A stretch of 64,000 nt of DNA from an uncultured Verrucomicrobiae bacterium. Its GTDB lineage: Bacteria > Verrucomicrobiota > Verrucomicrobiia > Chthoniobacterales > UBA10450. A program made the translations under genes and the position numbers. The notes under the pieces are model-generated. The model did not search any database. It was not told where the DNA came from and worked only from the letters and a program-made list of their open reading frames with translations. Below, one piece after another: positions 19,715 through 63,164 of this stretch (position 1 is the stretch's first letter; the number at the start of each line of letters is the position of its first letter). The stretch lies in assembly GCA_963792775.1 (NCBI GenBank), contig CAWBXU010000015.1:263-64262 (forward strand), written 5' to 3'.

Positions 19715-19946
19715 TTTCGGTGGGTTGAACCGGCGGCGGGCCAAGGGCCGCGCGGTTCAGACCTGGAATGGGCCAAGCGACCGCGCGATTCTATTCCATC
19801 GGATGCGAGGACCCGCCTAACGAACGCGAAGGCGACGGACGTCGAATCGCGGACAGCTTTTCGCCTAACGATTCCAGATAGCGCGAGGAATTCGCTGCCT
19901 GAATTCCGTCGATGCGCGTGCCGCCGGCGCAGGTTTACGTTGCGCC

Positions 19947-20414
19947 ATGCAAACATCAAACTTTCGAATCGTTCCGCTTCTCGCCGAGGTGGCGGAGGCG
20001 GCCCGGCGTCTGGCTGCGACGGGCGCTCCGGATCACGCCGTCGTGACGGCCGACGCGCCGACCGGCTACCCGTGCCGGCATTGCCTGCAATGGGCGCGGC
20101 CGGGCGAAGAAGTCATTCTCTTCCCCTACGCGTCCATTCCGGCCGGTCATCCCTACGCGGAGAGCGGTCCCATCTTCGTGCACGCGGAGAACTGCGCGCG
20201 TTATTCCGCGACGGCGGAATATCCGGCCAGTTTTCGGAGCCATCGCGTGTTCCGGGCCTATAATGCAGGCAACGACATGATCGACGCGGTCGCGCTGGAA
20301 AATGGTAAGCCCGAATCGGTGATCGCGCGGTTGCTGGAAAATCCCGAGACTGCTTTCCTGCAGGCGCGGAGCAGCACGCGCGGCTGTTACACCTTTAGAA
20401 TCGAACGCTCATGA
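19947..20414 (+). CDS. DUF1203-like small protein
   Basis: 155 aa. GYPCRHCLQWARPGEEVILFPYASIPAGHPYAESGPIFVHAENC matches my memory of the DUF1203 core. ATGA overlap with the downstream ada-like gene. Confidence 0.5.
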   Translation: MQTSNFRIVPLLAEVAEAARRLAATGAPDHAVVTADAPTGYPCRHCLQWARPGEEVILFPYASIPAGHPYAESGPIFVHAENCARYSATAEYPASFRSHRVFRAYNAGNDMIDAVALENGKPESVIARLLENPETAFLQARSSTRGCYTFRIERS

Positions 20415-21476
20415 AGACTCTGGAATTGCTTCCGCCTAACGACACCATGTATCGCGCGCTGGTCGATCGTGACTCGACCTTCGAAGGCATCTTCTTCGCG
20501 GGGGTGCGCACGACGGGAATTTTCTGTCGCCCCACCTGCAGCGCAAAAAAGCCGGCGCCGCAAAACGTCGAGTTCTTCTCGTCGCCTAACGAGGCCTTGC
20601 TTGGCGGTTATCGGCCCTGTCTGCGTTGCCGGCCGATGGATCCGGTGCAGCGTCCGCCAGAGCTGATCGAGCGCCTCCGCGCGGAGGTGGAAAAGGCGCC
20701 CGATGGTCGCCTGACGGACAAGGAACTTAGCTGCCCTCGCGATCGATCCTTCGACGGCGCGGCGACAGTTCAAGCGCCATTACGGAATGACGTTTCAGGC
20801 TTATCATCGGGCGCGGCGGCTGGGGCTGGCTTTGCGCGAAGTGCGTAAAGGGGAGCGCGTGGAGGATGTGCGCAACGGGAGCGGTTTTCAATCGGAGAGC
20901 GGATTCCGCGACGCTTTTACGAAGATCTTTGGAGAATCGCCGAGCGCGGCGAAAGGACAGGGCGGTTTGATGGCCGAGCGAATTGAAACGCCGCTCGGCT
21001 CGATGCTCGCGATCGCCGATGACGCCGGTCTGCGCCTGCTCGAGTTTGTCGATCGCCGGGCTCTCGAACGCGAGCTCTCGATCCTGCGGACGCGCCTAAA
21101 AACCAACGTTGTGCCGGGTGAACATCGGCATCTCACGGCGCTTCGCCGTCAGTTAGGAGATTATTTTTCAGGAACGAACCTGGTCTTCAAGGTGCCGATG
21201 GCACCGGTCGGTTCTCCGTTTCAACTCCGCGATTGGAAGTTGCTGCAATCGATTCCGCTGGGCGAAACCCGCTCCTATTCGTGGATGGCGGAGAAGCTGG
21301 GCGACAAGGAAATGCGACGCGCGGTCGGTCGAGCCAACGGCGAAAACATGCTTTGTATCATCATCCCGTGCCATCGCGTGATTCGAGCGGATGGCACGCT
21401 CTGCGGCTATGGCGGCGGGCTCTGGCGGAAGAAATGGCTGCTCGAGCACGAGCGAAACTGCGCCGGCAAATCCTGA
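20411..21476 (+). CDS. ada: Ada-like methylphosphotriester/O6-methylguanine DNA methyltransferase with an AraC-type HTH; 1-nt insertion near 20729
   Basis: The Ada zinc domain reads FCRPTCSAKKPAPQNVEFF..GYRPCLRCRP. The HTH (AIDPSTARRQFKRHYGMTFQAYHRARRLGLAL) is readable only after shifting frame at 20729. The Ogt domain carries the active site IIIPCHRVIRADGTLCGYGGG. Confidence 0.8.
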
Positions 21477-21493
21477 AGCGCTTCGACCCTCGC

Positions 21494-22103
21494 TTAGCCT
21501 GCCACGCTCCCGATTCCGTTGCCTAACGGCGCGGTCGTTTTCACCCGCTTCGGGTTGGCTCGCCGCTGGAGCAGCGCAACGAAGAGGAGAAAGCCGAGGC
21601 ATGTGCCGATCGAAATCAGCAGTTCATTTCGCACCGGTGGAAAAATAAGGAAGAAACCTTTGCCCTTGATCAGGGAGGAAAAGCTGGAGACGCAAAACGG
21701 CATGAGGAAAAGACGAAAAGCCTGCCAGCCGTCGGGTGCGCCGCCGGCCAGGCCGCGGACGCTGAGAAGGAGGGCGAAGCCGATAAGGGCGGTGATGCCT
21801 AACGAATTCAGCCAACGGGGAGCCCGAAAAAAAAAAAAAAAAAATAAAAATAGATAAACCAGAAGAAAAGCCAGATAAAAGAGGAGCGAAGAGATGGACC
21901 GGCGTCGGATCGAAGTGATGTCCGAGGGTGACCAGATACCAGAGGAGGTAACACCAGAGGATTTTCCGGCTGAGAGAAATCGATTCGAAATAGCGCAGGA
22001 AGATGGTGTGCACGCGAAGAGAAGGTTTGCGACCCGAGGCTAGTTCGTCGGTTGGACTTATGTCAACATAATCGTCACTTATTCTAGCCGTCGCGGCCGT
22101 CAA
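21494..22103 (-). CDS. Hypothetical multi-pass membrane protein split by a T18 homopolymer
   Basis: The upstream part (ORF 21624-22103) is hydrophobic up to ..GLSIFIFFFFF, then turns Arg/Pro-rich, which looks out of frame. The frame of ORF 21494-21703 is open and hydrophobic from codon 21826 (RAPRWLNSLGITALIGFALLLSV..). A tract of T17 or T20 would fuse the two parts. Confidence 0.45.
21827..21844. repeat. A18/T18 homopolymer tract (poly-Phe codons on the minus strand)
   Basis: Counted directly: 18 consecutive A on the + strand, followed by T and AAAAA. It is highly atypical in this GC-rich sequence. Confidence 0.9.
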
Positions 22104-22147
22104 AGGATTCCGGGCAACGGCAGCGAATTTTCGAGGCGCGGAGGGTC

Positions 22148-22319: not shown

Positions 22320-24437
22320 TTAGGGCTGGACGAGTTCGGCCGTGCCGCTGATCGCCGGACTATCCACTCCGCCGGTGATGAGAATTCGGCCGTCCTTCAA
22401 AAGCGTCGCGGTATGATTCTGCCGGGTCTCGGTCATGGTGCCAAACAAGCTCATGCGGCCCGTCGCCGGATCATACATTTCAACGGAATCGAGCGCTCGC
22501 TCCAAACCGCCAAAGACGGAGTTGCCAGTCGAGGCGCCTCCGATGACCAGGACGTTGCCCTGAAGAGAGCCCCAAGCGGGATTGTCCAGGAGAATCGCGA
22601 CGTGACGCTGCCGCTGCTGCATCAGCCCGTCCGTCTCGGAAAAGGTGCCGGCTGAAATGCTGTAGAGATCGGAGGTATCGGGGAAGGAAATCCCACCGGT
22701 GACCAGGATCGTGTTGTTGAGCAACAGGGTCGCGTCGTGCTCGGTGCGGCCGACATGCATTTCGCCACTGAGAGTCCAAGTGCGTGCCTTGACGTTATAG
22801 ATTTCCGACGTCGGCGTGCCGGTATCCACCGGCATGCCGTTGGAAATGGAGGCGCCTCCCTCAACGAAAACATTGCCGTTCGGTAGAAGATTCGCGCGAT
22901 GGCGCTTTCTTTGCACGTTCAGGTCCCCGGTGCTCGACCACGTGCCACGTCGCGGATTGTAAAGTTCCGCCGTCTTCTGCGGATCGGCTCCCATGCGGCC
23001 GCCGGCGGCCAGGACCTGGCCATTGGGCAGGAGAGTGGAGGTGAACAACGAGCGGCCATTGACCATCTCGCCGGTGAGGGAGAACTGATTGGTTTTCGGA
23101 TCGAAAATTTCGCACACTTCGGTATCGCCATTCTCTGTCTTGCCGCCTGCTATGAGGACTCTTCGGTCCTTGAGCCGGGTCGCAGTGTGACTCTTCCTAG
23201 CCTGAGTGAGAGAGCCGACGAGGCTGAAAGAGTTATGTTTGGGATCGAACAGTTCCGCGGAATCGAGAAATTCGGCGTCGGTGCTGCCTCCCACCAAGAG
23301 GACTTTGCCGCTTGTGAGCAGGGTGTCGGTATGTTGATTGCGTGCCACCTGCATGTTGCCTAACGAGGTAAAGGCATGCGTGACCGGATCGAGAATCTCC
23401 GCCGTTTGCAGGGTCTTGTTTCCGGTAATGCCGCCGGCCACGAGGACGCTGCCGTTGGGCAGGAGGGTGGCGGTCGGGCCGGTACGATTTTCCTGCATTG
23501 TGTCGTGAACTGACCACAGGCCCGTGACCGGGTCGCGGATTTCGTTGACGGCGAGGAAACCGCTCTCGAGCGTGGTGCCGCCGATCACGAGGACGCTGCC
23601 GTCAGACAGCAGGATCGCTTCGTGATTGGAACGGTGGTAGCGCATCTTCTTGGCGTTGGCGAAGGTTTGCTGCTGGGGATTGTAGATCTCGGTCTCGTCG
23701 TGGGGGCTCGTGCCGGTGAAACCGCCGGTGATCAGGACCGTGTTATCGGGCAGGAGCGTGCTGGTATGGTTGGCCCGCGAGAGGGTCATATGCGCGGCGA
23801 GCTGGGTGAAGGCATTGCTCGTCGAATTGTAGATCCAGGCATCCGCCGCCGGGATGGGGCCGACATAGCCACCGGTGACCAGAACCGTCCCATCAGCAAG
23901 ATTGACGGAGGAATGGCTGGAGCGGTTGGTCGGGGAGGTGGCCGTGGCCGTGAAGGTTTGCGTGACGGGATCGAAAAGATCGGCGTTCTTGCCACCGACG
24001 ATGACCACCTTGCCATTGGTGAGAAGATTAGCGGTGTGCTTGCTCCGTCCGATCGTCATTTGATGAGCCACTTGCGTAAAATTGCCGGTGTTAGGGTCGT
24101 AAAACTCGGCCGTTTTCAGCTGCTGCCCGCTCGACAGGACGCCGCCGGTGATGAGGACGCGACCATCAGATAGGAGAGTCGAAGTGTGATAGGAACGCGG
24201 CGTCGTCATCGAGCCGGTCGGGGTGAAAGTGCCCGTCGACGGATCGTAGAGAAGCGCGGAGTCGAGTGCCGCGCTCTCGTTGATTCCACCGGCGATCAAG
24301 ACTTTGCCGGAGTTGAGCAGAGTGGCGGTGTGACCGGCGCGCTCCGGGGTAAGCTCGATCGTTGAAGGCGCAGCAGAAACCCAGGTGGTGAAGACGCTGA
24401 GCGAAAGAGCGGCGACTGAAAGACAAAGTTTTTTCAT
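22320..24437 (-). CDS. Secreted Kelch-repeat beta-propeller protein
   Basis: 705 aa with signal peptide MKKLCLSVAALSLSVFTTWVSA. It has roughly 14 repeats of about 48 aa of the form R..HTATLL.dGkVLi.GG. The stop TAA lies inside CCCTAACGA. Confidence 0.8.
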   Translation of the reverse strand: MKKLCLSVAALSLSVFTTWVSAAPSTIELTPERAGHTATLLNSGKVLIAGGINESAALDSALLYDPSTGTFTPTGSMTTPRSYHTSTLLSDGRVLITGGVLSSGQQLKTAEFYDPNTGNFTQVAHQMTIGRSKHTANLLTNGKVVIVGGKNADLFDPVTQTFTATATSPTNRSSHSSVNLADGTVLVTGGYVGPIPAADAWIYNSTSNAFTQLAAHMTLSRANHTSTLLPDNTVLITGGFTGTSPHDETEIYNPQQQTFANAKKMRYHRSNHEAILLSDGSVLVIGGTTLESGFLAVNEIRDPVTGLWSVHDTMQENRTGPTATLLPNGSVLVAGGITGNKTLQTAEILDPVTHAFTSLGNMQVARNQHTDTLLTSGKVLLVGGSTDAEFLDSAELFDPKHNSFSLVGSLTQARKSHTATRLKDRRVLIAGGKTENGDTEVCEIFDPKTNQFSLTGEMVNGRSLFTSTLLPNGQVLAAGGRMGADPQKTAELYNPRRGTWSSTGDLNVQRKRHRANLLPNGNVFVEGGASISNGMPVDTGTPTSEIYNVKARTWTLSGEMHVGRTEHDATLLLNNTILVTGGISFPDTSDLYSISAGTFSETDGLMQQRQRHVAILLDNPAWGSLQGNVLVIGGASTGNSVFGGLERALDSVEMYDPATGRMSLFGTMTETRQNHTATLLKDGRILITGGVDSPAISGTAELVQP

Positions 24438-26070: not shown

Positions 26071-26862
26071 ATGTTCGACAGCCTGCTCAACGCGCTGCTC
26101 GTGGTCGCCGCGCTCTATGTTTACCTCGCGCTCTTCCGCCAGATCTCGGCCCGCCAGGTCAACGGCGCGGCCTCGTTAGGCGAAAAACAATTCGGCCTGC
26201 CCGAGGCGGCCACGGCCGCTCTTCTCGTGGGCTGGTTCGGCTTGAACGTCGTGACCGCGATCCGCTACGGGCAGGGAGCTTATCAGACGCGCGAGCTCAT
26301 TATCACCGGCGTCTTTTCCCTCGCCATCCTCCTCCTCCTCACTTCGCTCCTGCAATTTCGCGGCTTCAGTGTGCTCTCGTTAGGCGGATTCTCCCGGCTC
26401 GGTTTTGGACGGACCATCAGTACCGCGGCCGTCCTCCTTTTTGCCGCTTATCCGCTGCTCTTCGCGGCGGACGAAATTTCACAGTTGTTTCTCGGGAACG
26501 GCTCGAGCCGGCAGCAGATTATCGAAATGTTTACCGGCTCGGAGACGCTCCAGCAGCGCGTCATGATCATCGTCCTCGCGATCGGGATCGCCCCCATGAC
26601 CGAAGAATTTATCTTCCGCTTTTTCCTCTACGGAGTGCTCAAGCGCTATTTTGGCCGCGGCCCGGGTCTGATCATGAACGCCTTGCTTTTCGCCGCCGTG
26701 CACGTGCATCTGCCGAGCTTCGGGCCGCTCTTCGTCCTCGGCAGTTGCTTTACCCTGGCCTACGAATGGAGCGGTTCGATTCTTGTCCCCATGACGATGC
26801 ACGCGCTCTTTAATTTCTTCACCCTTAGCGCGCTCGCTTTTCCCAATCTCCTGCCGCAATGA
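26071..26862 (+). CDS. CPBP-family intramembrane glutamic endopeptidase (CAAX protease/Abi)
   Basis: 263 aa, multi-TM. CPBP motifs are present: TEEFIFRFFLYG (EExxxR), LLFAAVHVH (FxxxH) and MHALFNF (HxxxN). Confidence 0.8.
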   Translation: MFDSLLNALLVVAALYVYLALFRQISARQVNGAASLGEKQFGLPEAATAALLVGWFGLNVVTAIRYGQGAYQTRELIITGVFSLAILLLLTSLLQFRGFSVLSLGGFSRLGFGRTISTAAVLLFAAYPLLFAADEISQLFLGNGSSRQQIIEMFTGSETLQQRVMIIVLAIGIAPMTEEFIFRFFLYGVLKRYFGRGPGLIMNALLFAAVHVHLPSFGPLFVLGSCFTLAYEWSGSILVPMTMHALFNFFTLSALAFPNLLPQ

Positions 26863-27779
26863 AAGTGCGCGAGTCCGCCAAAGGACGGATTCGCTGCGGC
26901 GAACTGGGCGAGGACCGGCTGATCGCGCAACTGGTCCGCCGCCTCAAAACTCGTCCGGATGTGATCGCCGGCCCGGGCGATGACTGCGCGGTGGTGACGC
27001 TGCCGGGAGCGAAGCAGTTGCTTCTCTTGAAAACCGATTGCGTGGTCGAGCGCATTCACTTTCGGCCTAACGAATCGCCCAGTTCGGTCGGATGGAAAGC
27101 GATGGCGCGGGTCTTGAGCGATTTCGCGGCGATGGCGGGTCTGCCGCATTTTGCCCTCGTCACTTTGATCGTGCCGCCGGAGCGCGCCGCGCGCTGGACT
27201 AACGAACTCTATCGCGGGTTGCGCCGCGTCGCCGATCGTTTCGAGGTCGCGATCGTCGGCGGCGAAACCAGCAGCACCAAAGGCCCCGCTGTCGTCTCCA
27301 TCAGCGCCCTGGGGACGGTGGAAAAAAGTCGCTGGGTCTCGCGCAGTGGCGGGAAAAGCGGCGACGCGCTTTTCGTCACGGGAAGACTCGGAGGCTCCAT
27401 TCGCCGGAAGCATTTGAATTTCGTCCCGCGCATCGCCGAAGCCCGCTGGCTCACGGAAAATTTCCTCCTTCACGCGATGATGGATTTAAGCGACGGCCTC
27501 GGGACCGATCTCCCGCGTCTGGCGAAAGCCAGCAAAGTTGGTTTCGAGATTGACGAGAAAGCCCTGCCACGAAATCGCGCCTGTACGATTAAGCAGGCGA
27601 TCAGCGACGGCGAAGATTACGAACTGCTCTTCGCCCTCGCGCCTAACGACGCCGCGCCTTTGGAAAAAAAGTGGCGCAAGAAATTCCCGCCTCTACCGCT
27701 CACCCGCATCGGCTCCCTCATTCCGCATTCCGCATTCCGCATTCCGCATTGGTCCCGTGGCTACGTTCACTTCGCATAG
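26859..27779 (+). CDS. thiL: Thiamine-monophosphate kinase
   Basis: 306 aa. GEDRLIAQL..GPGDDCAVV, LLLKTDCVVERIHF and AIVGGETS..DLSDGLGTDL are typical AIR-synthase-fold ThiL motifs. ATGA overlap with the CPBP gene. The C-terminal tail is encoded by a heptanucleotide repeat. Confidence 0.85.
   Translation: MKVRESAKGRIRCGELGEDRLIAQLVRRLKTRPDVIAGPGDDCAVVTLPGAKQLLLLKTDCVVERIHFRPNESPSSVGWKAMARVLSDFAAMAGLPHFALVTLIVPPERAARWTNELYRGLRRVADRFEVAIVGGETSSTKGPAVVSISALGTVEKSRWVSRSGGKSGDALFVTGRLGGSIRRKHLNFVPRIAEARWLTENFLLHAMMDLSDGLGTDLPRLAKASKVGFEIDEKALPRNRACTIKQAISDGEDYELLFALAPNDAAPLEKKWRKKFPPLPLTRIGSLIPHSAFRIPHWSRGYVHFA
27719..27750. repeat. Tandem heptanucleotide repeat (CATTCCG) x 4.6
   Basis: The sequence cattccg cattccg cattccg cattccg catt was read directly. 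It encodes IPHSAFRIPH at the 3' end of thiL and ends 6 nt before the proposed tsaE GTG at 27757. Confidence 0.9.
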
Positions 27780-28176
27780 CGTGGAGGAGACGATCGCTTT
27801 TGCGCGGGAATGGGCCCAGGCGCTTCGGCCTAACGACGTCGTGGCCTTGCGCGGCGATCTCGGCTCGGGCAAAACGCATTTCGTCAAAGGTCTCGTCGCC
27901 GGTTGCGGCAGCGCCGATCCCGTCACCAGTCCCACTTTCACGATTCTGCACGAATACCGCGGCGGGCGACTGCCCGTTTTCCATTTCGATTTTTACCGGC
28001 TGGAGCATCGCGCGGAAGTCGAGCGTCTTGGCTTCGAAGAATATCTGGAGGACGGCGGCCTCGCCGTCATCGAATGGGCCGATCGGTTTCCCGAGTTATT
28101 GCCCGAGCGAACCCGCTGGATCGACGTCGTCGCGGGCACGGCCAACGAGCGCATGATCAGTGAAGCAAGCCGATGA
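27757..28176 (+). CDS. tsaE: tRNA t6A37 biosynthesis ATPase TsaE (YjeE)
   Basis: VALRGDLGSGKTHFVKGL (P-loop), SPTFTILHEY, FHFDFYRL and IEWADR are TsaE hallmarks. There is no in-frame ATG, so I take GTG 27757. It overlaps the thiL 3' end by 23 nt. Confidence 0.8.
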   Translation: MATFTSHSVEETIAFAREWAQALRPNDVVALRGDLGSGKTHFVKGLVAGCGSADPVTSPTFTILHEYRGGRLPVFHFDFYRLEHRAEVERLGFEEYLEDGGLAVIEWADRFPELLPERTRWIDVVAGTANERMISEASR

Positions 28177-28776
28177 GCATTCTCGCCCTCGAGCTTTCTT
28201 CACCGCTCGGCAGCATCGCCTTCCGTCACCCGGATGGAACCAGCGTCGTTAGGCAATTTCCGGCCGACCGCAAGGATTCCGGCTTTTTTTTCGAAAACCT
28301 GGGCGATCTCCGGCGCGAATGCGGATTGCCGGACGTGATCGCGGTCGGCCTTGGCCCGGGTTCCTACGCCGGCATCCGCATTGCGATCGCGACCGCGCTC
28401 GGGCTGCGGGCGGCGGCGGGGGCGCGGCTCGTGGGTTGGCCGTCGATTTGCGCGATCGATTGCGCGGAGTATTTCGTCGTCGGTGATGCGCGGCGAAGCA
28501 GTTATTTTTTTGCCCATGTGCGAGACGGCGACTGCATCGAGGGCCCGGTCTTAATGAGCGAGACGGAATTGCGCGCAAAGTTAGGCGAACAAAGCAATTT
28601 GCCGCGGCTGGCTGCGCAATCGTTGCCGCAATTTGCAGAAGTCACGCGTCGCGCATCCCTCCGCGTCTGTTCTCGCCCGTCTGGCTGAAAATCGCGGAAC
28701 AGAAGAACCGCTCGAGCCGATTTACTTGCGCGAGCCTTATATTACGACCCCGAAAGCCACGCCATGGAATCGTTAG
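28173..28776 (+). CDS. tsaB: tRNA t6A37 biosynthesis protein TsaB (YeaZ); frameshift near 28655
   Basis: MSILALELSSPLGSIA and VGLGPGSYAGIRIAIATALGL are present. The family-typical C-terminus (PSASVLARLAENRGTEEPLEPIYLREPY) is in another frame and ends at TAG 28774-28776. ATGA overlap with tsaE. Confidence 0.75.
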
Positions 28777-29863
28777 GCGAAGAACGGTGCTGGGCCGAGA
28801 TCGATCTCGCGGCCCTGCGGCACAACGCGCGAGTGGCGCGGGAGCGCGCGGGCGAGGGGAAGGAGCTGCTCGCGGTGGTGAAGGCGAACGGCTACGGCCA
28901 CGGCATGATCGAGATCGCGCGCGCCCTGCGGGAGGAGGCGGATCTTTTTGGCGTCGCCAACCTGCACGAGGCGCGCACGCTGCGCGAGAGCGGAGCCACG
29001 CAGCCGATCCTCCTCCTCGGTCCGGCGCTTCCGGAAGAGCGCGCCGCGATTAATGCGCAGGGCTTCATTCCTTCGGTCTCGACGGTCGAGGAAGCGGGCG
29101 CCTTCGCGGTGAATCGCAGCGGGATCAACTTTGTCATCGATACCGGAATGGGGCGGATGGGTTGCTGGCAGGACGACGCGCTTGCGACGCTGGAAAAAAT
29201 TGTGCGCATTCCGGGCTTGCTGCTGCACAGCGTCTCGACGCATTTGCCGGTCGGCGGACGAAGACGCCGCCTTTACCCGCGCGGAGCTGGCTCAGTTCGA
29301 CGCACTCGTTAGGCAGATTCGGCCGCGCGTTCCCGCTTCGACGAAAGTGCACGTGCTCCTGAGCGCCGGAATCCTCGGTTTTCCGCCGCAGAATTTCGAG
29401 ATCGTTCGTGCCGGTCTCATGCTCTACGGCAGTTCGCCGTTACCAGATGCGCAACAATTTCTGCGACCGGTGCTGAATTGAAAACGCACATCGCCCTGCT
29501 CCGCGACCTGCCGGCCGGCCGCGGCATCAGCTACGGCCGAACCTTCGTCACCCCCCGCCCGATGCGCGTGGCGACGATCAGCGCGGGCTACGCCGACGGT
29601 TATCCGCGCTCGCTCTCCAATCGCGACGCAGCCGTGCTGATCGGCGGGAAACGCTGTCCCGTTCTCGGCCGGATCACGATGGATCTCACGATGGTGGATG
29701 TGAGCGCCGCTGCCCGCAGCGCGCGTCGGCGACGAGGTCGTGCTCATCGGGCGTCAAGGCGAGCGAGGAAATTCTCGCGGCCGAAGTCGCGACGCGCGCG
29801 GGCACGATCGCGTGGGAGATTTTCACCGGGATTGGCAGCCGGGTGCGGCGTGTGTATTTGTGA
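28764..29863 (+). CDS. alr: Alanine racemase, readable only across four frame changes (about 29255, 29475, 29715, 29768)
   Basis: Segments read AEIDLAALRHNARV..AVVKANGYGHG (PLP lysine), STHLPV/ADEDAAFTRAELAQF, RPVL/LKTHIALLRDLPAGRGISYGRTF..SAGYADGYPRSL..GRITMDLTMVDVS, GDEVVLIGRQGE and EILAAEVATRAGTIAWEIFTGIGSRVRRVYL. Each junction is a 1-nt indel. For example, ttt has become tt at 29475. Confidence 0.8.
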
Positions 29864-29870
29864 GGCGGCG

Positions 29871-31182: not shown

Positions 31183-31512
31183 ATGAAAGATACGAGCGTT
31201 ACCAAGGTCACTTCAGAGTTTTCCCCGCACGGTCCGGAAGGAGAAAAGTATCTCGCCTCCGGAATTCACGTCGCCATGCGGCTCTGGGAAAACGAAAAGC
31301 CTAACGACAAAAAGCCGGTTTCGAAACATCCCTACGAAGTCGTCGGCTACGTGATCAAGGGAAAAGCCGAGCTCCATCTCGAAGGGCAGACCTTGATCCT
31401 GAACGCGGGTGATTCCTACGCCGTGCCGAAAAACGCGGAGCACACCTACAAAATCGTCGAGAACTTCACCGCGGTGGAGGCAACGAGCCCGCCGGCGCTG
31501 GTGCATCAGTAG
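31183..31512 (+). CDS. Cupin-domain protein
   Basis: 109 aa from ATG 31183. HPYEVVGYVIKGKAELHLEGQTLILNAGDSYAVPKNAEHTY fits the two-motif cupin_2 pattern. Confidence 0.65.
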   Translation: MKDTSVTKVTSEFSPHGPEGEKYLASGIHVAMRLWENEKPNDKKPVSKHPYEVVGYVIKGKAELHLEGQTLILNAGDSYAVPKNAEHTYKIVENFTAVEATSPPALVHQ

Positions 31513-32935: not shown

Positions 32936-33730
32936 TCACGAGCTGGCGCTGGAATAATGCTGCAGCGCCCAGCGCCAAAAAGCGCGGCTGATGAGGGCCG
33001 CAATCGTCCCCGCCGCGACGAGGTGAAACATCAGCCAGGCGGGTTGGCCTAACGACTTGATGAGGAGCCGCGCCGGGATGTTGGCCACGATGATGACGGG
33101 CACAATCCAGCCGAAAACCCAGCGGAAGACTGGAGGAAAAATGACGTCCGGATAGCGCGCGATGTTAAGAAAGTTGAAGTAGCCGTAGACCAGTCCCTGT
33201 GCCCTAACGATCCAGAAGCTGACCGCGGCGAGCGTGAGCATGATTGAGTAATGGATCGCGACCCCGAATCCGAGCGCGACGAAGTAGAGCGCGATCGCTC
33301 CGGGACCGGGGACAACGTGCAAACGCACGAGCGAAATGATGACGACGATCGCGCCGATGAGCGCGTTGACGATGCTGTCGAGGCCGAATTGTTTCGTCGA
33401 AACGACAAACTGGCTATCGAGCGGGAGGACGAGGAGCGAATCCAGTTTCCCGGTGCGAACGAGCTCGGGAATGTTGGCCACGTTAACGAAGAAAAACGCC
33501 TGGAAAAGCTGGGCGATGATCTGGTGCGTGCCGACGAGGAGGACGACTTCCCATTTCGTCCAGTCACCGATCCGATCAACCTGCCCGAAGATGATGCTGA
33601 AGAAGAGGATCTGGCCACAAAACCAGAGCACCTCCACCACCATCCAGAGGAGGAAGTTGGCCTTGAAGCTGAGCTCGCGGATGAGGGAATTGCGCAGCAT
33701 GATCGAGTAGATTTCGAAGTAACGGCGCAC
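32936..33730 (-). CDS. ABC-2-type transporter permease (DUF990-like), no partner genes adjacent
   Basis: 264 aa with six predicted TM helices. The N-terminus MRRYFEIYSIMLRNSLIRELSFKANFLLWMVVEVLWF is typical of this permease family. Confidence 0.55.
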   Translation of the reverse strand: MRRYFEIYSIMLRNSLIRELSFKANFLLWMVVEVLWFCGQILFFSIIFGQVDRIGDWTKWEVVLLVGTHQIIAQLFQAFFFVNVANIPELVRTGKLDSLLVLPLDSQFVVSTKQFGLDSIVNALIGAIVVIISLVRLHVVPGPGAIALYFVALGFGVAIHYSIMLTLAAVSFWIVRAQGLVYGYFNFLNIARYPDVIFPPVFRWVFGWIVPVIIVANIPARLLIKSLGQPAWLMFHLVAAGTIAALISRAFWRWALQHYSSASS

Positions 33731-35068: not shown

Positions 35069-35835
35069 ATGGCCGATCAAGCTGTCGTTAGGCTGGAAGA
35101 CGTTCACAAGATTTACCACACCGGTGAAGTCGAAGTGCACGCCGTCCGCGGCGTCTCGCTCGAGATCGCGAAAGGCGAATTCGTCGCCTTCATGGGCTCG
35201 AGCGGCTCGGGCAAATCGACTCTCATGAACATCCTCGGCTGCCTCGACCGGCCTTCACGCGGCCGCTATTTGCTCGATGGCGAGGATGTCTCCGGCCTGG
35301 AGCGCGATCAGCTCGCCGATATCCGCAACGGCAAACTCGGTTTCGTTTTTCAAAGTTTCAACCTGCTCGCCCGCACTTCGGCGCGGGAGAACGTCGAGCT
35401 GCCGCTGCTTTACGGCGCGCATCGCCTAACGAACATGGAACTGGCCGCGCGCGCCGACAAGGTGCTCGCCGCGGTCGGCCTGGCCGGCCGCGAAGATCAT
35501 CACCCGAGCCAGCTTTCCGGCGGCCAGCAGCAGCGCGTCGCCATCGCCCGCGCGCTGATCAACGACCCGGAGGTCGTCCTCGCCGACGAGCCGACCGGCA
35601 ACCTCGACAGCCGCACGAGCGTCGAGATCATGGGCATTTTCCAGGAGCTGAACGAGCGCGGCATCACCATCATCATGGTGACGCACGAACCGGACATCGC
35701 TTCCTACGCGCGGCGCAACATCGTGATGCGCGACGGCCTCGTGCAATACGATCGCCCGGTGAAGGAGCGGTTTTCCGCCAAGATCGAGGCGCAAAAGCTT
35801 TCCGAAGTCGTGGAGCAGGAAGCGGAGGTGGAAGC

Positions 35836-35839: not shown

Positions 35840-37054
<1,215 letters not shown>

Positions 37055-37057
37055 TGC

Positions 37058-43350: not shown

Positions 43351-43360
43351 CGCCTAACGA
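43345..43360 (+). repeat. Two overlapping copies of the genomic word (GCCTAACGCCTAACGA) at the rplJ stop
   Basis: Read directly. The first copy supplies the rplJ TAA and the second follows with an 8-nt period. Confidence 0.8.
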
Positions 43361-44166: not shown

Positions 44167-47974
<3,808 letters not shown>

Positions 47975-47995
47975 CGAAAAGCAAGAAGATTTCTA

Positions 47996-52299: not shown

Positions 52300-52863
52300 A
52301 TGTCGATCGCAACTAAGACCGGTGACGCCGGTGAAACTTCGCTCATGTATGGCCGGCGGGTGCCAAAGACCGATCACCGGGTTGATGCCTACGGCTGTGT
52401 TGATGAAGTGAATTCCGCGCTCGGCCTTGTCCGCGCCACGACCGGCTCCGGGCCAATCGCGGAACAGATTCTCGCGATTCAAAAAGAGCTCGTCACTGTG
52501 ATGGGCGAACTCGCGACCGCGCCGCAGGATCTCGCGCGCTACGAAAAGGACGGCTTCGCCCTAACGACATCCGCGATGGTCGATCGCCTAACGAGCGCAA
52601 TCGACGAACTGGAGAAAGATAAAACGCTTTACGGCAAAGGCTGGGCCATGCCTGGCAACACACCGCTCGGAGCCGCCCTTGATCTCGCGCGTACCACCTG
52701 CCGCCGCGCCGAACGCCGCGTCGCGGCGCTCGACGTCGCCGAGCATTCCAACGCCGAAATCCTCCGCTACCTCAACCGCCTCTCCGATCTCTGCTGGCTC
52801 CTCGCGCGTTTCGTTGAGAAAAACGACCACCGCATCGGCCTGAACCCTGGCGCGCCGGAATGA
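52300..52863 (+). CDS. PduO-type ATP:cob(I)alamin adenosyltransferase
   Basis: 187 aa. The N-terminus TKTGDAGETSLMYGRRVPKTDHRVDAYGCVDEVNSALG and RLSDLCWLLAR are typical of the PduO/MMAB family. Confidence 0.85.
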   Translation: MSIATKTGDAGETSLMYGRRVPKTDHRVDAYGCVDEVNSALGLVRATTGSGPIAEQILAIQKELVTVMGELATAPQDLARYEKDGFALTTSAMVDRLTSAIDELEKDKTLYGKGWAMPGNTPLGAALDLARTTCRRAERRVAALDVAEHSNAEILRYLNRLSDLCWLLARFVEKNDHRIGLNPGAPE

Positions 52864-55402: not shown

Positions 55403-55462
55403 ATTGCCGGCAGACTAGCGAGCCCGCTCGGAAGACAGAGAAAAATCGCTTCGCCTAACGAA

Positions 55463-58051
55463 TTATTCTGCGCGCAGCGCGACCATCGGATCTACGCGCG
55501 CCGCACGTCGCGCCGGTATCCAGGTCGCGAGCAGGGCCGCGGCCGCGAGGAGAAGCGGCGCGAGCGTGAAGGCAATCGGATCGAGCGCGCCGACTTCGTA
55601 GAGCAACCCGCTCACCACTCTGCCGATCAGGATCGCAAGTACCAGCCCGAGCCCGACGCCACTTAGCAACATGAGCGCGGTTTCGCGCATGAACATCCAT
55701 TGCACCGCGCCCGGCTGCGCGCCCAACGCCATGCGAATGCCGATCTCCCGCCGGCGCCGCGCGACCGCGTAGGCTTTCACCCCGTAAATCCCGATGACCG
55801 CGAGCGCGAGCGCGAGCCCGCCGAAGATGGAAAAAAGCGCTGCCCCCGCCCGCACGAGCCAGAGCTCGACATTGCTCTCGAGATGTTGCGAGAACGTTTT
55901 CAGCGAGAGAATTGGCAGCACCGGATCGACTTCGCGAACCGTCCGCCTGACGAGATCGGCGGCGGTGCTTTCATTGGCGTGACTGAGCGCCGCGAATTTT
56001 ACGATGAAGAAAACCTCGCTCTGGAATCCGCGCGCGAAGGGCAGGTAAAGCGTTCCCGGCTGCTCGCTCTCGAAGATGGCGCCACGCGTCGCCGGCACGA
56101 TGCCGACGACTTCGATCGGTTGTTCCGGCTTAATTTGCCCGTTGCGGTCGTCATTGATGTTGAACCCGTTCCGCTCGGTACCTTTCACGGGGGCGTTGTC
56201 GCTCGCGATCTGGATTTGCTGTCCCAGCGCGTCGCCATCGGGCCAGAGTTTTTTCGCGAGCACATCGTCGATGATCGCGACCGCAGGTCCGCCGGGCTCG
56301 TTTGCCTCCGCCGCATTAAAGGCGCGCCCGCGGAGGAAGCGCAGTCCGGTGGTGGAAAAATAATCCGCGCCCACGCTGTTCCAGCGCGCGCTGAAAGCGA
56401 GGCCCGCCGCGGCCGTCGCCGGATGCGAGTCGGCTGTTCCATGAAAGCCGGCCCGCTGCACGTTCTTATCCAACGAAATCATCCCGAAAGGCACGGTCGC
56501 GGAAATCGTGGCGTGCTCGACCCCAGGAAGAGCGGCCAGGCGCTCCTGCAGTTTGCGATAAAGTTCCTGCGCGTGTTTTTGATCGTAGCCGCCGAGGCTG
56601 GCATCGACTTCGAGGAGAAAACTCCGCTCCGTCTGCAAGCCCGTATCGACGCTCGCTGCTTTCTGCGCGCCGCGGACGAAGAGCGCCGCCGCCGTCAGGA
56701 GGGCGAGAGAAAAGGCGATTTGCGCCACCACGAGCGGATTGCGCGGGAGAAATTTCCAATGCCGCCTAACGACATCTTCGGCCGCGTTTTCCTTCAGATC
56801 GCCGATCACGAGACCGCGCGAAAGTTTCAAGGCCGGCCCGAGGGCGAAGCCGATCGTGCCGAGCATGGCGAAGAGGAGGGTGGCGAGAAGGATGGCGGGC
56901 TTGGGTCCCGTCGTCCAAACGAGATCGAGCGGGATCAGCTTGCCGGCCGAGGCAAAGAGCAGGTCGCACGACCAGAGCCCGAGGAGCAATCCGCCGGCCC
57001 CGCCGCAGAGCGCGAGAACGAATCCTTCGATGAGCAGTTGCCTAACGATTTGCCGGCGGGTCCCTCCGAGCGCCTGCCGAATCGCGATCTCTTTGCGCCG
57101 CGCCGTGCCGCGGGCGAGGAGCATGTTCGCGAGGTTGAGGCAGGCGACGAGGAGCACGACCAGCGACATCCCGAGAAGGAGCGGCGCGACCGTGCCCAGG
57201 TTGCCCGCGCCTTGCGGGCTCGTGCTCGTGGAAAAGCGCGAGACGGGCGTGGTCAAAAAGGTCTGGTTTTTCTGCTCGACGGGGTAGGCCTTTTCCAGAT
57301 TGGTCGCCAGCGTCTTCAGCGCGGGCAACGCGGCCGCCGCCGTCAGGCCGGGTTTGAGCCGGCCAATCAGCATGAGCTGGGTGCTGGCGCGGTCGCCTAA
57401 CGAGTTGCGATTATCCTGCTCGAAATCGTTCGCCACCTGATCGTAAACCCCGAGCGGCAGCCAGACCTCCGGAGCGATGATCTGCATCGTCCCGGCGAAC
57501 CCTTCCGGCAGGATCCCAACGATCGTGAACGGGCGCCCATCGATCAGCATTTTCGAGCCGAGGAGATCGGGCTTGAGGCCCTGTTTTTTCCAATAGCTGT
57601 GACTAACGATCGCGACCTGCGCGTTGCGGCCGGGCGTTTCCTCCTCGGGCAAAAAAGTGCGCCCCTGCGCGGGTGCGCGTCCGAGGACGGAGAAGTAGTT
57701 CGAGCTCACGACATCCGCGAAAGCGCGTCGGGTGTTCCCTTTTTCGCCGATGCCGATCATGGCGAGGTTATGCGCGAAGAGGCCGGAGAAGACGGTGTTC
57801 TGCTCGCGAATGTCGCGATAAGTCGGATAGGAAAAACCGCGAAAGCTCTTCGGGTTTTTCGCATCCTGCGAGAAGAGCTGCACGATTTCGTCAGGCCGCT
57901 CATAACTCGGCGGGTCGTAGAGCAGTGTGTGGATGAGGCTGAAGACGGAGGTGTTGACCCCGATGCCAAGGGCCAGGGTGAGGATCGCAAGGGCGCTGAA
58001 GCCGGGCGATTTGAGGAGGAGCCGAAGGGCGAAGCGGAGGTCGTGGAGCAT
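55463..58051 (-). CDS. ADOP-family duplicated MacB/FtsX-type permease (paralogue 1)
   Basis: 862 aa and intact. The N-terminus is MLHDLRFALRLLLKSPGFSALAILTLALGIGVNTSVFS. There are two FtsX modules (..RRKEIAIRQALGG.. and ..RRREIGIRMALGA..). The C-terminus is ARRAARVDPMVALRAE. Confidence 0.85.
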   Translation of the reverse strand: MLHDLRFALRLLLKSPGFSALAILTLALGIGVNTSVFSLIHTLLYDPPSYERPDEIVQLFSQDAKNPKSFRGFSYPTYRDIREQNTVFSGLFAHNLAMIGIGEKGNTRRAFADVVSSNYFSVLGRAPAQGRTFLPEEETPGRNAQVAIVSHSYWKKQGLKPDLLGSKMLIDGRPFTIVGILPEGFAGTMQIIAPEVWLPLGVYDQVANDFEQDNRNSLGDRASTQLMLIGRLKPGLTAAAALPALKTLATNLEKAYPVEQKNQTFLTTPVSRFSTSTSPQGAGNLGTVAPLLLGMSLVVLLVACLNLANMLLARGTARRKEIAIRQALGGTRRQIVRQLLIEGFVLALCGGAGGLLLGLWSCDLLFASAGKLIPLDLVWTTGPKPAILLATLLFAMLGTIGFALGPALKLSRGLVIGDLKENAAEDVVRRHWKFLPRNPLVVAQIAFSLALLTAAALFVRGAQKAASVDTGLQTERSFLLEVDASLGGYDQKHAQELYRKLQERLAALPGVEHATISATVPFGMISLDKNVQRAGFHGTADSHPATAAAGLAFSARWNSVGADYFSTTGLRFLRGRAFNAAEANEPGGPAVAIIDDVLAKKLWPDGDALGQQIQIASDNAPVKGTERNGFNINDDRNGQIKPEQPIEVVGIVPATRGAIFESEQPGTLYLPFARGFQSEVFFIVKFAALSHANESTAADLVRRTVREVDPVLPILSLKTFSQHLESNVELWLVRAGAALFSIFGGLALALAVIGIYGVKAYAVARRRREIGIRMALGAQPGAVQWMFMRETALMLLSGVGLGLVLAILIGRVVSGLLYEVGALDPIAFTLAPLLLAAAALLATWIPARRAARVDPMVALRAE

Positions 58052-58063
58052 GGTCGTGGTTTT

Positions 58064-60508
<2,445 letters not shown>

Positions 60509-60563
60509 TTGGATGCAGTGGCCGCCTTGTTGGATTCAAATTCCTCTGCCGCGCCTTCAAATT

Positions 60564-60714
60564 CTGGGGAGGACGGAGTGCCACTCCGTCGTTCGGCGCA
60601 GTCTGCGCCGAACTGCGCGCAGGGTTGATTCCTCGAGCACGGGTGGCGCCGTTCGCGGAGGGCCTTGGACGAGACTCGTCCAAGCGCGACGGAGTAACAC
60701 TCCGTCCTCCCCGG
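60564..60714. repeat. 151-bp REPIN-like element (GGGGAG heads) between ADOP paralogues 3 and 2
   Basis: It reads CTGGGGAG GACGGAGTG-c-CACTCCGTC (60564-60590), GTTCGGCGCAG-t-CTGCGCCGAAC (60591-60613), CTTGGACGAG-a-CTCGTCCAAG (60664-60684), then GACGGAGT-aac-ACTCCGTC CTCCCCGG (60688-60714). Confidence 0.75.
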
Positions 60715-60737
60715 AACGGAAATAGCACGCCGGAAGA

Positions 60738-63164
60738 TCATTCTGCCCGTAATGCCTCCATCGGATTCACTTTGGTGGCGCGGCGCGCGGGGAGGTAATT
60801 GGCGAGGAGCGCGACGAGCGCGAGCAGACAAACGACGCTGACGAACGTCACCGGATCCGTCGCGCCCACACCATAGAGCAGGCTCGCAAGAAATCTCGTT
60901 AGGCCAAACGCGGCCAGCAGGCCGAGTCCGAGCCCGATGGCAGCGAGTTTCATTCCGTCGCCCACGACCATGCGAAAGAGCGTCGCGCGTTGCGCCCCCA
61001 AAGCCATGCGAATGCCGAGCTCGCGCGTGCGCTGGGTGACGGCGTAGGAAATGACGCCATACAAACCGAGCGCGGCGAGGGCGAGTGCGATCGCGGCGAA
61101 GGTGCCGAGCAACGCGCCGTTCAGCCGTCGATCCGCGACCGATTCAGCGATCACGTTTTGCATGGTTTCGACCCGGAATAGCGGCAAGCTCGGATCGATT
61201 TCCTGAATGGCGCGCCGCACCGAAGCCACGAGCGCCGTTGGCTCAGTCGCATTCGCCCGCACCACCAAGGTCGCGGTCTGCAGCATGTTGCCTCCCAAAT
61301 CTTTCGAGCCCGGAGCCTGCGCAATCGCGAAGTAAATTTCTGGCTGCGGCTCGCGATCGAGACCGCTCTGCCTGACGTCAGCGACCACCCCGACGATCGT
61401 GAAGGCGTATTCGCTCCCGATAAGAATTTTTCCGCCGAGAATTCCGCTTTCGCTTTCACCGAAGCGACGAGCGAGCGCGCGGTTCACCACGATCGAGGGC
61501 GACGCCATCGCGCCATCGCGCGCATCAGTCAGCCGGCCGGCCAGCAGCGGCACGCCCATCGTCCCGAAGTAATTCCCGGCGACACAGCGGAACTCCGCCA
61601 GCGGCGCCTGCCCGGGCGGGAAAGGATGACCCTCGAGTTTGATGCTGCCGTTCATGCCCCATTGCGCGAGCGGCAGAAAATTGATCGCCCCGGCGCCGCG
61701 CACTCCGGGCAGACTTTGGATGCGGCCGAGCGCACGCTGGTAAAACGCGATGACCTGATCGGCGCGCGCGTAACGATCGTTAGGCAAAGCGACCCGCGCG
61801 GTCAGCACCTGCTCCGGCTCGCGCAATCCCGAGTTGGTCTGCTGCAGGGCCGCGAAACTGCGCAGGAGCAAGCCGGCGCCGCTCAGGAGGACGACGGCGA
61901 GCGCCACTTCCGCGACAACGAGGAGACCGCGCAACCGGTTCGCGCCCGCGAGCGCAGTCTGGCCGTGCAGCGCAGTTTGCATATCGGCCGCGGAACGTCC
62001 CAACATTTGCCGCGCGGGCGCGAGTCCGCAGCCGACCCCGACGCAGAAAGCGAGGAGCGCGGTGAAACCCAAGACCGTTCCATCGAGGTGCACCGCGCTC
62101 GCCCCAGGAATTTGATTGCCTAACAATGCCAGGAGCAGATCGATGCCCCAGATGGCGAGGACAATGCCGGCCGCGCCGCCCAGCGTCGCGAGCAAAATGC
62201 TCTCGATGAGAAATTGCCTAACGAGTCGCGCGCGACTGGCGCCGAGCGCGAGCCGGAGCGCGATCTCGCGCTGGCGTCCGGCGGCGCGGGCGAGGAGAAG
62301 ATTGGCGATGTTGGCGGTCGCGATCAGGAGGACGCAGGCGACGCTTCCGAGGAGAACGAGGAGCGAGGCGCGGCTGTTCCGCGTCAGCTGTTCCTGCAGG
62401 GGGACGAGCGAGATGCTGCGGTCGCCCTGCTCGTCGGGATATTTTTTCCCGATCGTTAGGGCGACCGCTTCCATGTTGGCCTGCGCCTGCGCCAGGGAGA
62501 CGCCGGGACGCAGACGACCGACCACCTGCAATCCGTGATCGCCGCGCGCCGCCATCTGCGCCGGAGTCACGACCAGCGGCACCCAAAGCTGCCCGCGTTC
62601 GCTCGGAAAACGAAAGCTCGCCGGCATTACTCCGATGACGGTGAAAGGCCGGCCATCGAGCGGAATGGTGAGGCCAACGATCGCGGGATCAGCTCCGAAT
62701 TGCGCGCGCCACATTCCCTCGCTGAGCACAACCACGTTCGTGCCGCCGGCCCGGTCTTCACCGCCGACAAACGTTCGGCCGAGCAGCGGCTGCGCGCCGA
62801 GGACGCGGAAATAATTTGCCGAAACGGTGACGCCAAGAATGCGCTCCGGGCTCGTTTTATCCTGCAGCGCGAAATCCTGATATTGGTAGGCCGCGATGCC
62901 TTGCAGCGTCGTGTTCTGTTCGCGCCAGTCGCGAATATTGGCGGGTGAGCTGGAGCCGAGAAAGCCCGCTGGAAATTTCTTGCTCTCGAAAATCTGCACG
63001 AGCTGATCCGGCCGGGTGAGCGGCAGCGGGCGCAGGAGGACGGCGTTGACCACGCTGAAGATCGCGGTGTTCGCGCCGATCCCGAGAGCGAGAGTGAGGA
63101 TCGCAATCAGGCTGAAGCCCGGCGATTTTATTAGAAGCCTGAAGGCGTAGCGAAGATCGTTCAT
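60738..63164 (-). CDS. ADOP-family duplicated permease (paralogue 3)
   Basis: I take ATG 63164 (MNDLRYAFRLLIKSPGFSLIAILTLALGIGANTAIFS), giving 808 aa. The ORF extension to 63272 runs through the palindromic element. It has GRQREIALRLALGA, RTRELGIRMALGA and ARRATKVNPMEALRAE. Confidence 0.85.
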   Translation of the reverse strand: MNDLRYAFRLLIKSPGFSLIAILTLALGIGANTAIFSVVNAVLLRPLPLTRPDQLVQIFESKKFPAGFLGSSSPANIRDWREQNTTLQGIAAYQYQDFALQDKTSPERILGVTVSANYFRVLGAQPLLGRTFVGGEDRAGGTNVVVLSEGMWRAQFGADPAIVGLTIPLDGRPFTVIGVMPASFRFPSERGQLWVPLVVTPAQMAARGDHGLQVVGRLRPGVSLAQAQANMEAVALTIGKKYPDEQGDRSISLVPLQEQLTRNSRASLLVLLGSVACVLLIATANIANLLLARAAGRQREIALRLALGASRARLVRQFLIESILLATLGGAAGIVLAIWGIDLLLALLGNQIPGASAVHLDGTVLGFTALLAFCVGVGCGLAPARQMLGRSAADMQTALHGQTALAGANRLRGLLVVAEVALAVVLLSGAGLLLRSFAALQQTNSGLREPEQVLTARVALPNDRYARADQVIAFYQRALGRIQSLPGVRGAGAINFLPLAQWGMNGSIKLEGHPFPPGQAPLAEFRCVAGNYFGTMGVPLLAGRLTDARDGAMASPSIVVNRALARRFGESESGILGGKILIGSEYAFTIVGVVADVRQSGLDREPQPEIYFAIAQAPGSKDLGGNMLQTATLVVRANATEPTALVASVRRAIQEIDPSLPLFRVETMQNVIAESVADRRLNGALLGTFAAIALALAALGLYGVISYAVTQRTRELGIRMALGAQRATLFRMVVGDGMKLAAIGLGLGLLAAFGLTRFLASLLYGVGATDPVTFVSVVCLLALVALLANYLPARRATKVNPMEALRAE

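Follow-up and report, generated by a model that had tools for sequence, protein, structure and literature searches.

A hyper-abundant non-palindromic 9-mer resembling a DNA uptake sequence in a narrow clade of Chthoniobacterales

Introduction

Why should one non-palindromic 9-nt word, GCCTAACGA (read as TCGTTAGGC when it lies on the minus strand), be scattered by the dozen over a stretch of bacterial chromosome, mostly inside genes and in codons that the genome otherwise seldom uses? The stretch in question, hereafter the window, comprises 64,000 nucleotides of contig CAWBXU010000015.1 (assembly GCA_963792775.1), from an uncultured bacterium of the Chthoniobacterales, and an earlier note made from its letters had likened the word to a DNA uptake signal. 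The explanation that fits best is that GCCTAACGA, whose 5' flank is weakly T-rich and of which a few variants are tolerated, could be an uptake or self-recognition word spread by molecular drive, comparable to the DNA uptake sequences (DUS) and uptake signal sequences (USS) of other bacteria; on the analyses presented below, we give this explanation about an even chance.

Abundance of the word in the window

A pattern search of the whole window detected 39 exact copies, 27 on the plus strand and 12 on the minus strand. Between 19.7 and 64 kb there were 38 copies of GCCTAACGA or TCGTTAGGC (0.86 per kb, about one per 1.15 kb), whereas positions 1-19,700 held a single one, the enrichment setting in abruptly at about 19.8 kb. 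Every one of the 38 coordinates listed in the earlier note was exact, the copy at 14440 (+) having been missed; the word is indeed hyper-abundant, but only to the right of this boundary. Dinucleotide-shuffled versions of the whole window contained a mean of 0.45 copies and a maximum of three, against the 39 observed, and Markov simulations of order 1-3 for the segment from 19.7 to 64 kb yielded 0.17-0.63 copies, against 38; all in all, 0.2-0.7 copies would be expected in these 44.3 kb. The word ranked first among the 9-mers of the window, and its two 8-mer sub-words were the top 8-mers, with 49 copies each. In the pooled word-bearing DNA (191.6 kb), 149 exact copies were found where 2.25 were expected, a count that is slightly over-estimated because twelve of the contigs had been chosen for having a word pair. 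The over-representation was about 55- to 65-fold or greater. The CCTAAC core occurred 67 times in 19.7-64 kb (one per 0.66 kb, orientation 42:25), in good agreement with the previous estimate of roughly one per 0.7 kb and 40:22. The density trait of the known uptake sequences, that is, a short non-palindromic word found about once per kb on both strands and far over expectation, was therefore present for GCCTAACGA.

Reading frames and codon use

Coding sequence accommodated 32 of the 39 copies (82% intragenic), 16 in sense and 16 in antisense, a balance that ruled out an RNA-level or transcription-linked element. The four stop-free strand-frames were all used (P-N-D/E in 11 copies, including the TsaE copy, which was re-phased by hand; S-L-G in nine, V-R in seven and L-T in five), and in a fifth frame the word supplies the genuine stop codon of rpoB (GCC-TAA, 47969). 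The claim that copies occur in all three frames thus failed as worded, but stood when expressed as four stop-free strand-frames plus this stop. True reading frames were never interrupted by the word in the window; a word-caused in-frame stop (TAG) in alr was considered and ruled out, the frameshifts of this gene being due to indels and the true path reading V-R. The codons TTA (8/29, 28%), AGG (5/19, 26%) and CTA (3/23) fell inside words, which make up about 0.6% of the codons, confirming the suspicion that the rare codons are concentrated there.

The copies are listed below with coordinates, strand, gene context and encoded residues; plus-strand copies read GCCTAACGA and minus-strand copies TCGTTAGGC.

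19815..62224, word-rich core segment: 38 exact and 33 one-mismatch copies
14440..14448, +, glycosyltransferase gene, sense, P-N-E; sole copy of the island; also in L241
19815..19823, +, non-coding
19863..19871, +, non-coding
20434..20442, +, Ada Zn-domain gene, sense, P-N-D
20584..20592, +, Ada Zn-domain gene, sense, P-N-E
21797..21805, +, hypothetical open reading frame (ORF), P-N-E; an A18 run follows 30 nt downstream
23358..23366, +, Kelch-repeat gene, antisense, S-L-G
26173..26181, -, CAAX-protease gene, antisense, S-L-G
26377..26385, -, CAAX-protease gene, antisense, S-L-G
27065..27073, +, AIR-synthase-related gene, sense, P-N-E
27641..27649, +, AIR-synthase-related gene, sense, P-N-D
27828..27836, +, TsaE ORF 27538-28176, P-N-D; frame assigned by hand from the ORF start
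28246..28254, -, TsaB-like gene, antisense, V-R
28770..28778, -, alr, antisense, S-L-G
29306..29314, -, alr, V-R in the true reading path
31299..31307, +, cupin gene, sense, P-N-D
33047..33055, +, intergenic, between DksA-like and HlyD genes
35085..35093, -, ABC ATPase gene, antisense, V-R
35424..35432, +, ABC ATPase gene, sense, L-T
36528..36536, +, MacB-type permease gene, sense, P-N-D
37123..37131, +, its TAA ends ORF 35836-37128; gene probably frameshifted, stop uncertain
38048..38056, +, BNR/sortilin-like ORF, sense, L-T
38372..38380, +, BNR/sortilin-like ORF, sense, L-T
40549..40557, -, hypothetical gene, antisense, S-L-G
41632..41640, +, antisense to a minus-strand hypothetical gene, S-L-G
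43352..43360, +, rplJ-rplL spacer, just after a one-mismatch copy at 43345; CCTAAC-like in relatives
47912..47920, -, rpoB, S-L-G; also in L081, L082, L083, L206 and L207; L049 has TTG for TTA
47969..47977, +, rpoB stop codon GCC-TAA; same arrangement in L205
51819..51827, -, rpoC, I-V-R-Q
52586..52594, +, cob(I)alamin adenosyltransferase gene, L-T; window-specific, relatives having CTG-ACC/ACG
55453..55461, +, intergenic
56764..56772, +, MacB-type permease 1, antisense, V-R
57040..57048, +, MacB-type permease 1, antisense, V-R; matching position in L081 and L083
57395..57403, +, MacB-type permease 1, antisense, S-L-G
58758..58766, -, MacB-type permease 2, sense, P-N-E
60047..60055, +, MacB-type permease 2, antisense, S-L-G
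60896..60904, -, MacB-type permease 3, sense, L-T
61777..61785, -, MacB-type permease 3, sense, P-N-D
62216..62224, +, MacB-type permease 3, antisense, V-R; matching position in L081

All seven non-coding or gene-end copies (19815, 19863, 33047, 37123, 43352, 47969 and 55453) are on the plus strand and add to the orientation skew of the window; several of them fall at the 3' end of a gene, a place in which GCC-TAA can act as final codon and stop.

Distribution among relatives, metagenomes and viruses

By its rpoC protein, the organism belongs to the Chthoniobacterales (Verrucomicrobiota). Relatives were found by an rpoC protein search, on contigs from separate ENA, JGI and NCBI samples. Close relatives at 96-97% rpoC identity, representing four independent genomes, carried the word at 0.30-1.03 copies per kb:

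L081 (ERZ25071726 ctg274525_19x_c, 4.02 Mb): 10 GCCTAACGA copies in 24 kb
L082: 5 GCCTAACGA copies in 16.7 kb
L083 (JGI 3300036855 Ga0376680_0000002, 1.29 Mb): 18 GCCTAACGA copies in 24 kb
L084: 17 GCCTAACGA copies in 16.5 kb; apparently the same genome as L083
L205: 9 GCCTAACGA copies in 24 kb

These loci and the window formed one clade in a neighbour-joining tree of rpoC. Outside it, the sister pair L049 and L206 had zero and one copies, respectively, L207 had four, and L010 and L208 had none, so that the word-bearing clade is narrow (rpoC at least about 93.5% identical). Three of the words of L207 lie at 355-2111 and could represent a recombined fragment, the only other one being the shared rpoB copy. 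At about position 9350 of L082 (window 47357), rpoB is frameshifted by an extra C inside the near-word CCG[C]TTAGGC; this single case may stem from miscalled bases where the word is modified.

Metagenomes were scanned for two GCCTAACGA copies 10-40 nt apart, a criterion that also returned many chance or tandem-repeat matches. At least 12 soil contigs, none resembling the window, carried words dispersed over both strands, with a density of about 0.4-1.8 per kb, and their tetranucleotide correlation with the window core was 0.88-0.95, the remaining matches having a median of 0.77. Word-rich contigs unrelated to the window indicate that the enrichment is restricted neither to the window, a possibility raised in the earlier note, nor to the surroundings of rpoBC. 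When 84 rpoC loci of diverse bacteria were scored for enrichment, the word-bearing loci came out strongest; of four other high scorers inspected, three had 9-mers that were rejected as REP-like (repetitive extragenic palindromic; L060), tandem (L069) or coding repeats (L012), and the fourth, L028, had a five-copy word. The REP-like element of L060 (Pseudoxanthomonas spadix), about 45 nt long (…GGATCCCCGCCTGCGCGGGGATGATGTTCCGGCAAAG…), occurs in clusters around rpoC (1308-19143). A scan of IMG/VR viral contigs revealed no dispersed high word density; its matches were tandem repeats or pairs due to chance, the exception being one cluster in L232 (IMGVR_UViG_3300036832_000197, 48% GC), where four exact words lie in about 900 bp (11807-12651) while a further 12 kb examined had none. 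The metagenome contig L114 showed 10 words in its first 5 kb (1697-4918) and none in 5000-13872, a part with few long ORFs that was negative in an Rfam scan for an rRNA operon.

A different word was abundant in a neighbouring lineage. The metagenome-assembled genome L010 (Chthoniobacterales, 90% rpoC identity) contained 14-19 copies of (A/T)AGATCGACAAT in 20.8 kb; they lie in both orientations, some of them within rpoC, and show no flank similarity. The signal was weaker in L208, annotated as Udaeobacter, which had seven copies of ATCGACAA in 16.8 kb, including three at orthologous sites. Judging from these loci, lineage-specific hyper-abundant words may recur across this order. Sharing of GCCTAACGA within its clade was observed, while the neighbouring-lineage word AGATCGACAAT is unrelated in sequence and not a close dialect.

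Origin by substitution and conservation of the copies

No insertions were present at word sites in alignments of the window with L049 (93% rpoC identity) and L010, which showed substitutions instead and ruled out an insertion or watermark. In rpoC, the word with its flank is ATC-GTT-AGG-CAA in the window, against ATC-GTG-CGC/CGT-CAG in the outgroups L049, L010 and L007, a difference of four nucleotides that leaves the protein unchanged; the rpoB word (47912) involved a change of TTG to TTA, and in the adenosyltransferase gene CTG-ACC-GCG became CTA-ACG-AGC, two silent changes plus an Ala to Ser replacement. These comparisons show that the copies arose by mostly synonymous substitution at conserved protein positions, using rare codons. 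The proposal of selection on the DNA word itself was supported to the extent that some force acts on the word, on the evidence of the ortholog alignments, the rare-codon substitutions and the independence from the transcribed strand.

The rpoC copy (51819) is common to L081, L082 and L083, and the rpoB copy (47912) to these three plus L206 and L207; L205 lacks both, and further copies are genome-specific. The word was retained in the other genome in 47% of the aligned comparisons, against 20% for control 9-mers, yet over half of the comparisons were unshared, indicating that the word is both maintained and turned over.

Variants, flanks and orientation

One-mismatch copies numbered 33 in 19.7-64 kb, about three-fold more than the 8-12 or so expected, whereas two-mismatch copies were not enriched there relative to the Markov simulations. 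In the 191.6-kb pool, eight one-mismatch variants (CCCTAACGA, GACTAACGA, GCATAACGA, ACCTAACGA, GCCTAACAA, GCCTAACGT, GCCTAACGG and GCCTGACGA) were enriched 4- to 19-fold, including transversions at positions 1-3 and 9, while positions 4, 6 and 7 tolerated almost no substitution. At positions 2 and 3, C>A was enriched 9- to 19-fold and C>T not at all. To judge by the pool, this spectrum resembles graded recognition by a DNA-binding protein and not random or transition decay. Across 150 distinct pooled sites from the window and related DNA, the only flank signal was a weak bias towards T from position -4 to position -2, with no information beyond positions -4 to +9, indicating that the copies are not pieces of a longer repeat; the 10-nt limit of similarity proposed from the letters alone was confirmed, and so was the distinction from REP elements, given also the 82% intragenic location.

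Orientation ratios at the rpoBC locus of the relatives were 4:6, 1:4, 9:9 and 6:3, as compared with 27:12 in the window. Over 17 contigs, the within-contig majority orientation was 0.65, which fits p = 0.5-0.6 and rejects 0.75 (P ~0.001) and 0.9. Such near-random orientation makes Chi-like roles, and those of FtsK-orienting polar sequences (KOPS), unlikely, and bears out the difference from Chi and KOPS drawn in the earlier note.

The word-poor polysaccharide island

The segment to the left of the enrichment boundary was identified as follows:

1..19700: exopolysaccharide/O-antigen cluster with GNVR, pyruvyl transferase, glycosyltransferases, Wzx flippase, Wzy-like, Wza and GH5

Its GC content was 54%, against about 61% in the core, with a lower GC at third codon positions as well, and its tetranucleotide correlation with the window core was 0.87. 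Counting exact words and favoured variants together, the island had two (one exact, one variant) and the rest of the window 65. Homologs of the island flippase were found at 100, 82 and 77% identity and then at no more than 55%, as compared with dozens at 96-97% for rpoC. A 9.8-kb block (6534-16323) was 98.4% identical to positions 8743-18538 of L241 (ERZ25039539 contig_2969; 1.79 Mb, belonging to another genome and sample), with different flanking genes on both sides; L241 carried the same single word copy, one in 21.5 kb. The near-identity in differing contexts, the atypical composition and the flippase homolog pattern indicate a horizontally exchanged cassette, and on this sequence comparison the cluster is best described as a recently exchanged one that has not gained the word. 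Depletion in horizontally acquired DNA, a trait of uptake sequences, was accordingly present (one copy in 19.7 kb).

Candidate explanations

Thousands of codon-opposed sites in essential genes, together with a sister lineage that lacks the word, make selection at each site a difficult explanation and molecular drive an easier one. A DUS/USS-like word is favoured here because biased uptake followed by recombination is the sole experimentally established drive that gives exactly this pattern. Under this explanation, a DNA receptor of the transformation machinery would preferentially bind and import double-stranded fragments bearing the word, and the imported fragments would replace homologous chromosome segments through RecA-dependent recombination. 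Mutations that create or improve a word would be over-transmitted, and words would accumulate wherever coding constraint permits, rare codons notwithstanding. The competence of these bacteria, a receptor of this specificity and uptake bias as the drive are all three things that we infer. The likeness to an uptake signal proposed in the earlier note was upheld for density, length, strand symmetry, coding tolerance, clade restriction and island depletion, and failed for terminator placement.

Several observations weigh against uptake. About half of the DUS/USS are placed in terminators, according to a recent preprint survey; unlike these, GCCTAACGA was not enriched in terminators or inverted pairs, the terminator scans yielding no convincing terminator with the word and no association with close inverted pairs, and the strong rpoC terminator (52260-52287) lacked it. 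Even spacing was not seen, the distances being Poisson-like (coefficient of variation 0.91, P = 0.36, small n). The sister-lineage word AGATCGACAAT is unrelated to GCCTAACGA, unlike the dialects of DUS, which differ by 1-2 nt. Neither the 64-kb window nor the loci of about 17-24 kb from the relatives contained competence or pilin genes, and a pattern search of the clade loci found no prepilin motif. We know of no report of natural transformation in Verrucomicrobiota, nor of a cultured member of the clade. Finally, any sequence-specific biased gene conversion would produce an identical static pattern.

This last point leads to the main rival, a serious one that predicts the same static pattern, although we consider it unlikely: a repair or methylation drive of the type suggested for HIP1 (highly iterated palindrome 1), in which a methyltransferase plus a Vsr-like endonuclease, or very-short-patch (VSP) gene conversion, would turn near-cognates into GCCTAACGA with no role in uptake. 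It would explain the origin by substitution, the strand symmetry, the clade specificity and the slow gain in new DNA equally well, and the contrast between C>T and C>A at positions 2-3 is in the direction expected from T:G to C:G correction. HIP1, a non-uptake word, shows a comparable enrichment of 15- to 300-fold according to the abstract of PMC5861425, and the indel within the near-word of L082, albeit a single case, could hint at a modified base. Against this drive, the rpoC copy took four changes including transversions (CGC to AGG), which go beyond T-to-C correction, and transversions are also found among the enriched variants. Pfam scans detected no methyltransferase or Vsr gene in the window, Ada and Ogt being its only repair genes. 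The VSP-type drives known to date target palindromic methylation sites of 4-5 bp and enrich them modestly, and a 9-bp asymmetric specificity would be unprecedented.

A Chi-like or nuclease-modulating self signal, read by RecBCD/AddAB or a defence nuclease, serving to protect or repair the chromosome and selected in the core, appears improbable. Chi words are lineage-specific, unrelated between taxa, enriched in the core and poor in foreign DNA, and the clade specificity and island depletion of GCCTAACGA match this behaviour, as does the skew of the window itself. However, an orientation bias of 0.75 or more was rejected over the 17 contigs, and the ratios at the rpoBC locus of the relatives were mixed. 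The Chi of E. coli occurs about once per 4.5 kb with a few-fold excess, and the density and enrichment reported above for a 9-mer are far above those of known Chi; moreover, selection per site, spread over thousands of sites, would be very weak.

We regard as more improbable still that the copies are sites for a nucleoid-associated or chromosome-organising protein, held by selection for chromosome structure. Strand symmetry, independence from transcription, the elevated conservation of copies and a variant spectrum like graded protein specificity would all suit such sites, but a minute fitness effect per site is unlikely, we believe, to beat codon bias, the nearest sister (93% rpoC identity) does without the word, which would make it dispensable for conserved chromosome biology, and its spacing in the window was random, with no periodicity. 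A trivial origin, whether as an artefact of sequencing, assembly or base-calling, as an inserted tag or as debris of a longer dispersed repeat, is effectively refuted in spite of the error-prone window assembly with its several frameshifts in essential genes, since the word is found at orthologous sites of independent ENA, JGI and NCBI assemblies, respects the true reading frames, and shows neither insertions relative to orthologs nor flank similarity.

Relation to known systems and significance

The USS of the Pasteurellaceae (core AAGTGCGGT in Haemophilus influenzae) and the DUS of the Neisseriaceae (GCCGTCTGAA and its dialects) share with GCCTAACGA a non-palindromic 9-nt core with weakly biased flanks, a density of about one per kb in both orientations, mostly intragenic copies in permissive frames and unusual codons, sharing within a clade, absence in neighbours, depletion in acquired DNA and graded variants. 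In contrast, GCCTAACGA belongs to another phylum, is unrelated to AAGTGCGGT and has at most the GCC start in common with GCCGTCTGAA, and it is known here from sequence alone, whereas DUS/USS receptors include ComP in Neisseria and the predicted ComN in Pasteurellaceae. To our knowledge, sequence-specific DNA uptake is confined to two proteobacterial families, both host-associated, and a dense pattern of silent-substitution words is otherwise known only from the uptake sequences of Neisseria and the relatives of Haemophilus.

HIP1 (GCGATCGC, cyanobacteria) is likewise a hyper-abundant short word in coding and non-coding DNA that is conserved within lineages, and the enrichment of GCCTAACGA falls within the range given for it above. 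It is, however, a palindrome with known methylases and a phylum-wide distribution, while GCCTAACGA is asymmetric, has no known methylase and is limited to a narrow clade. The function of HIP1 is unsettled, links to DNA methylation and horizontal transfer having been proposed. Chi, KOPS and SpoIIIE recognition sequences (SRS) are also lineage-specific short words over-represented in core genomes, but they are 5-8 nt long, several-fold sparser or far less enriched, and oriented with replication, as opposed to the near-random GCCTAACGA. REP elements, bacterial interspersed mosaic elements (BIME) and miniature inverted-repeat transposable elements (MITE) resemble GCCTAACGA in their many dispersed copies, but these are longer palindromic units that lie between genes and have conserved flanks, as in the L060 repeat.

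No prior description emerged from full-text searches of the literature, whether for the word or for competence or uptake sequences in Verrucomicrobia or Chthoniobacter, the results being limited to primers and papers on other subjects, and recent preprints still assign sequence-specific uptake to Neisseriaceae and Pasteurellaceae. We tentatively propose, with somewhat less than even confidence, that GCCTAACGA would be the first uptake (self-recognition) sequence outside Proteobacteria, and that, with neighbours including Udaeobacter-like genomes bearing unrelated words such as AGATCGACAAT, word-specific transformation with fast-evolving receptors would be a recurrent and so far overlooked trait of soil Verrucomicrobiota. 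The Chthoniobacterales are among the dominant soil bacterial groups. If the uptake explanation is true, species-restricted transformation might shape how genes move and how species cohere in soil microbiomes; the word would serve as a tag for assigning metagenomic contigs and spotting foreign islands in the clade, and as a handle on a new DNA receptor through phylogenetic profiling; and it could aid the design of DNA taken up by these so far intractable bacteria. If the drive were instead repair or methylation, HIP1 would have in GCCTAACGA its first asymmetric counterpart, with a bearing on a 30-year-old puzzle.

Gene context and assembly quality

The gene map of the window was obtained from Pfam scans. 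To the right of 19.7 kb it comprises housekeeping genes: ada/ogt, a tRNA-Arg gene, thiL-like, tsaE, tsaB, alr and a MacB/HlyD ABC system, followed further right by rplA, rplJ, rplL, rpoB, rpoC and the cobalamin adenosyltransferase gene. The window assembly was error-prone, with frameshifts in several essential genes: rpoB was split into two ORFs by an extra base in a CGCGCGCG run (45255), alr (28764-30233) showed at least four frame changes from assembly indels, rplJ and rplL were read as one fused ORF (42810-43868), and the MacB-type permease at 35836-37128 had a truncated FtsX domain. Frame assignments near such indels are uncertain, and indels may hide some word copies.

MacB_PCD/FtsX permease paralogs stand in tandem at 55463-63980, at least three of them complete and a fourth one cut by the window end, and a similar array follows rpoC in L083 too. 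One gene of this tandem was delimited as follows:

60738-63272: MacB-type permease gene

An Rfam scan gave a tRNA as its only match. The window has a tRNA-Arg at 22148-22221. About 300 nt from it, and 30 nt past a word copy, lies an A18 homopolymer (21827-21844) in a genome of about 60% GC, and a (GCATTCC)x3 tandem repeat was observed at 27725-27745, near the end of the AIR-synthase-related gene.

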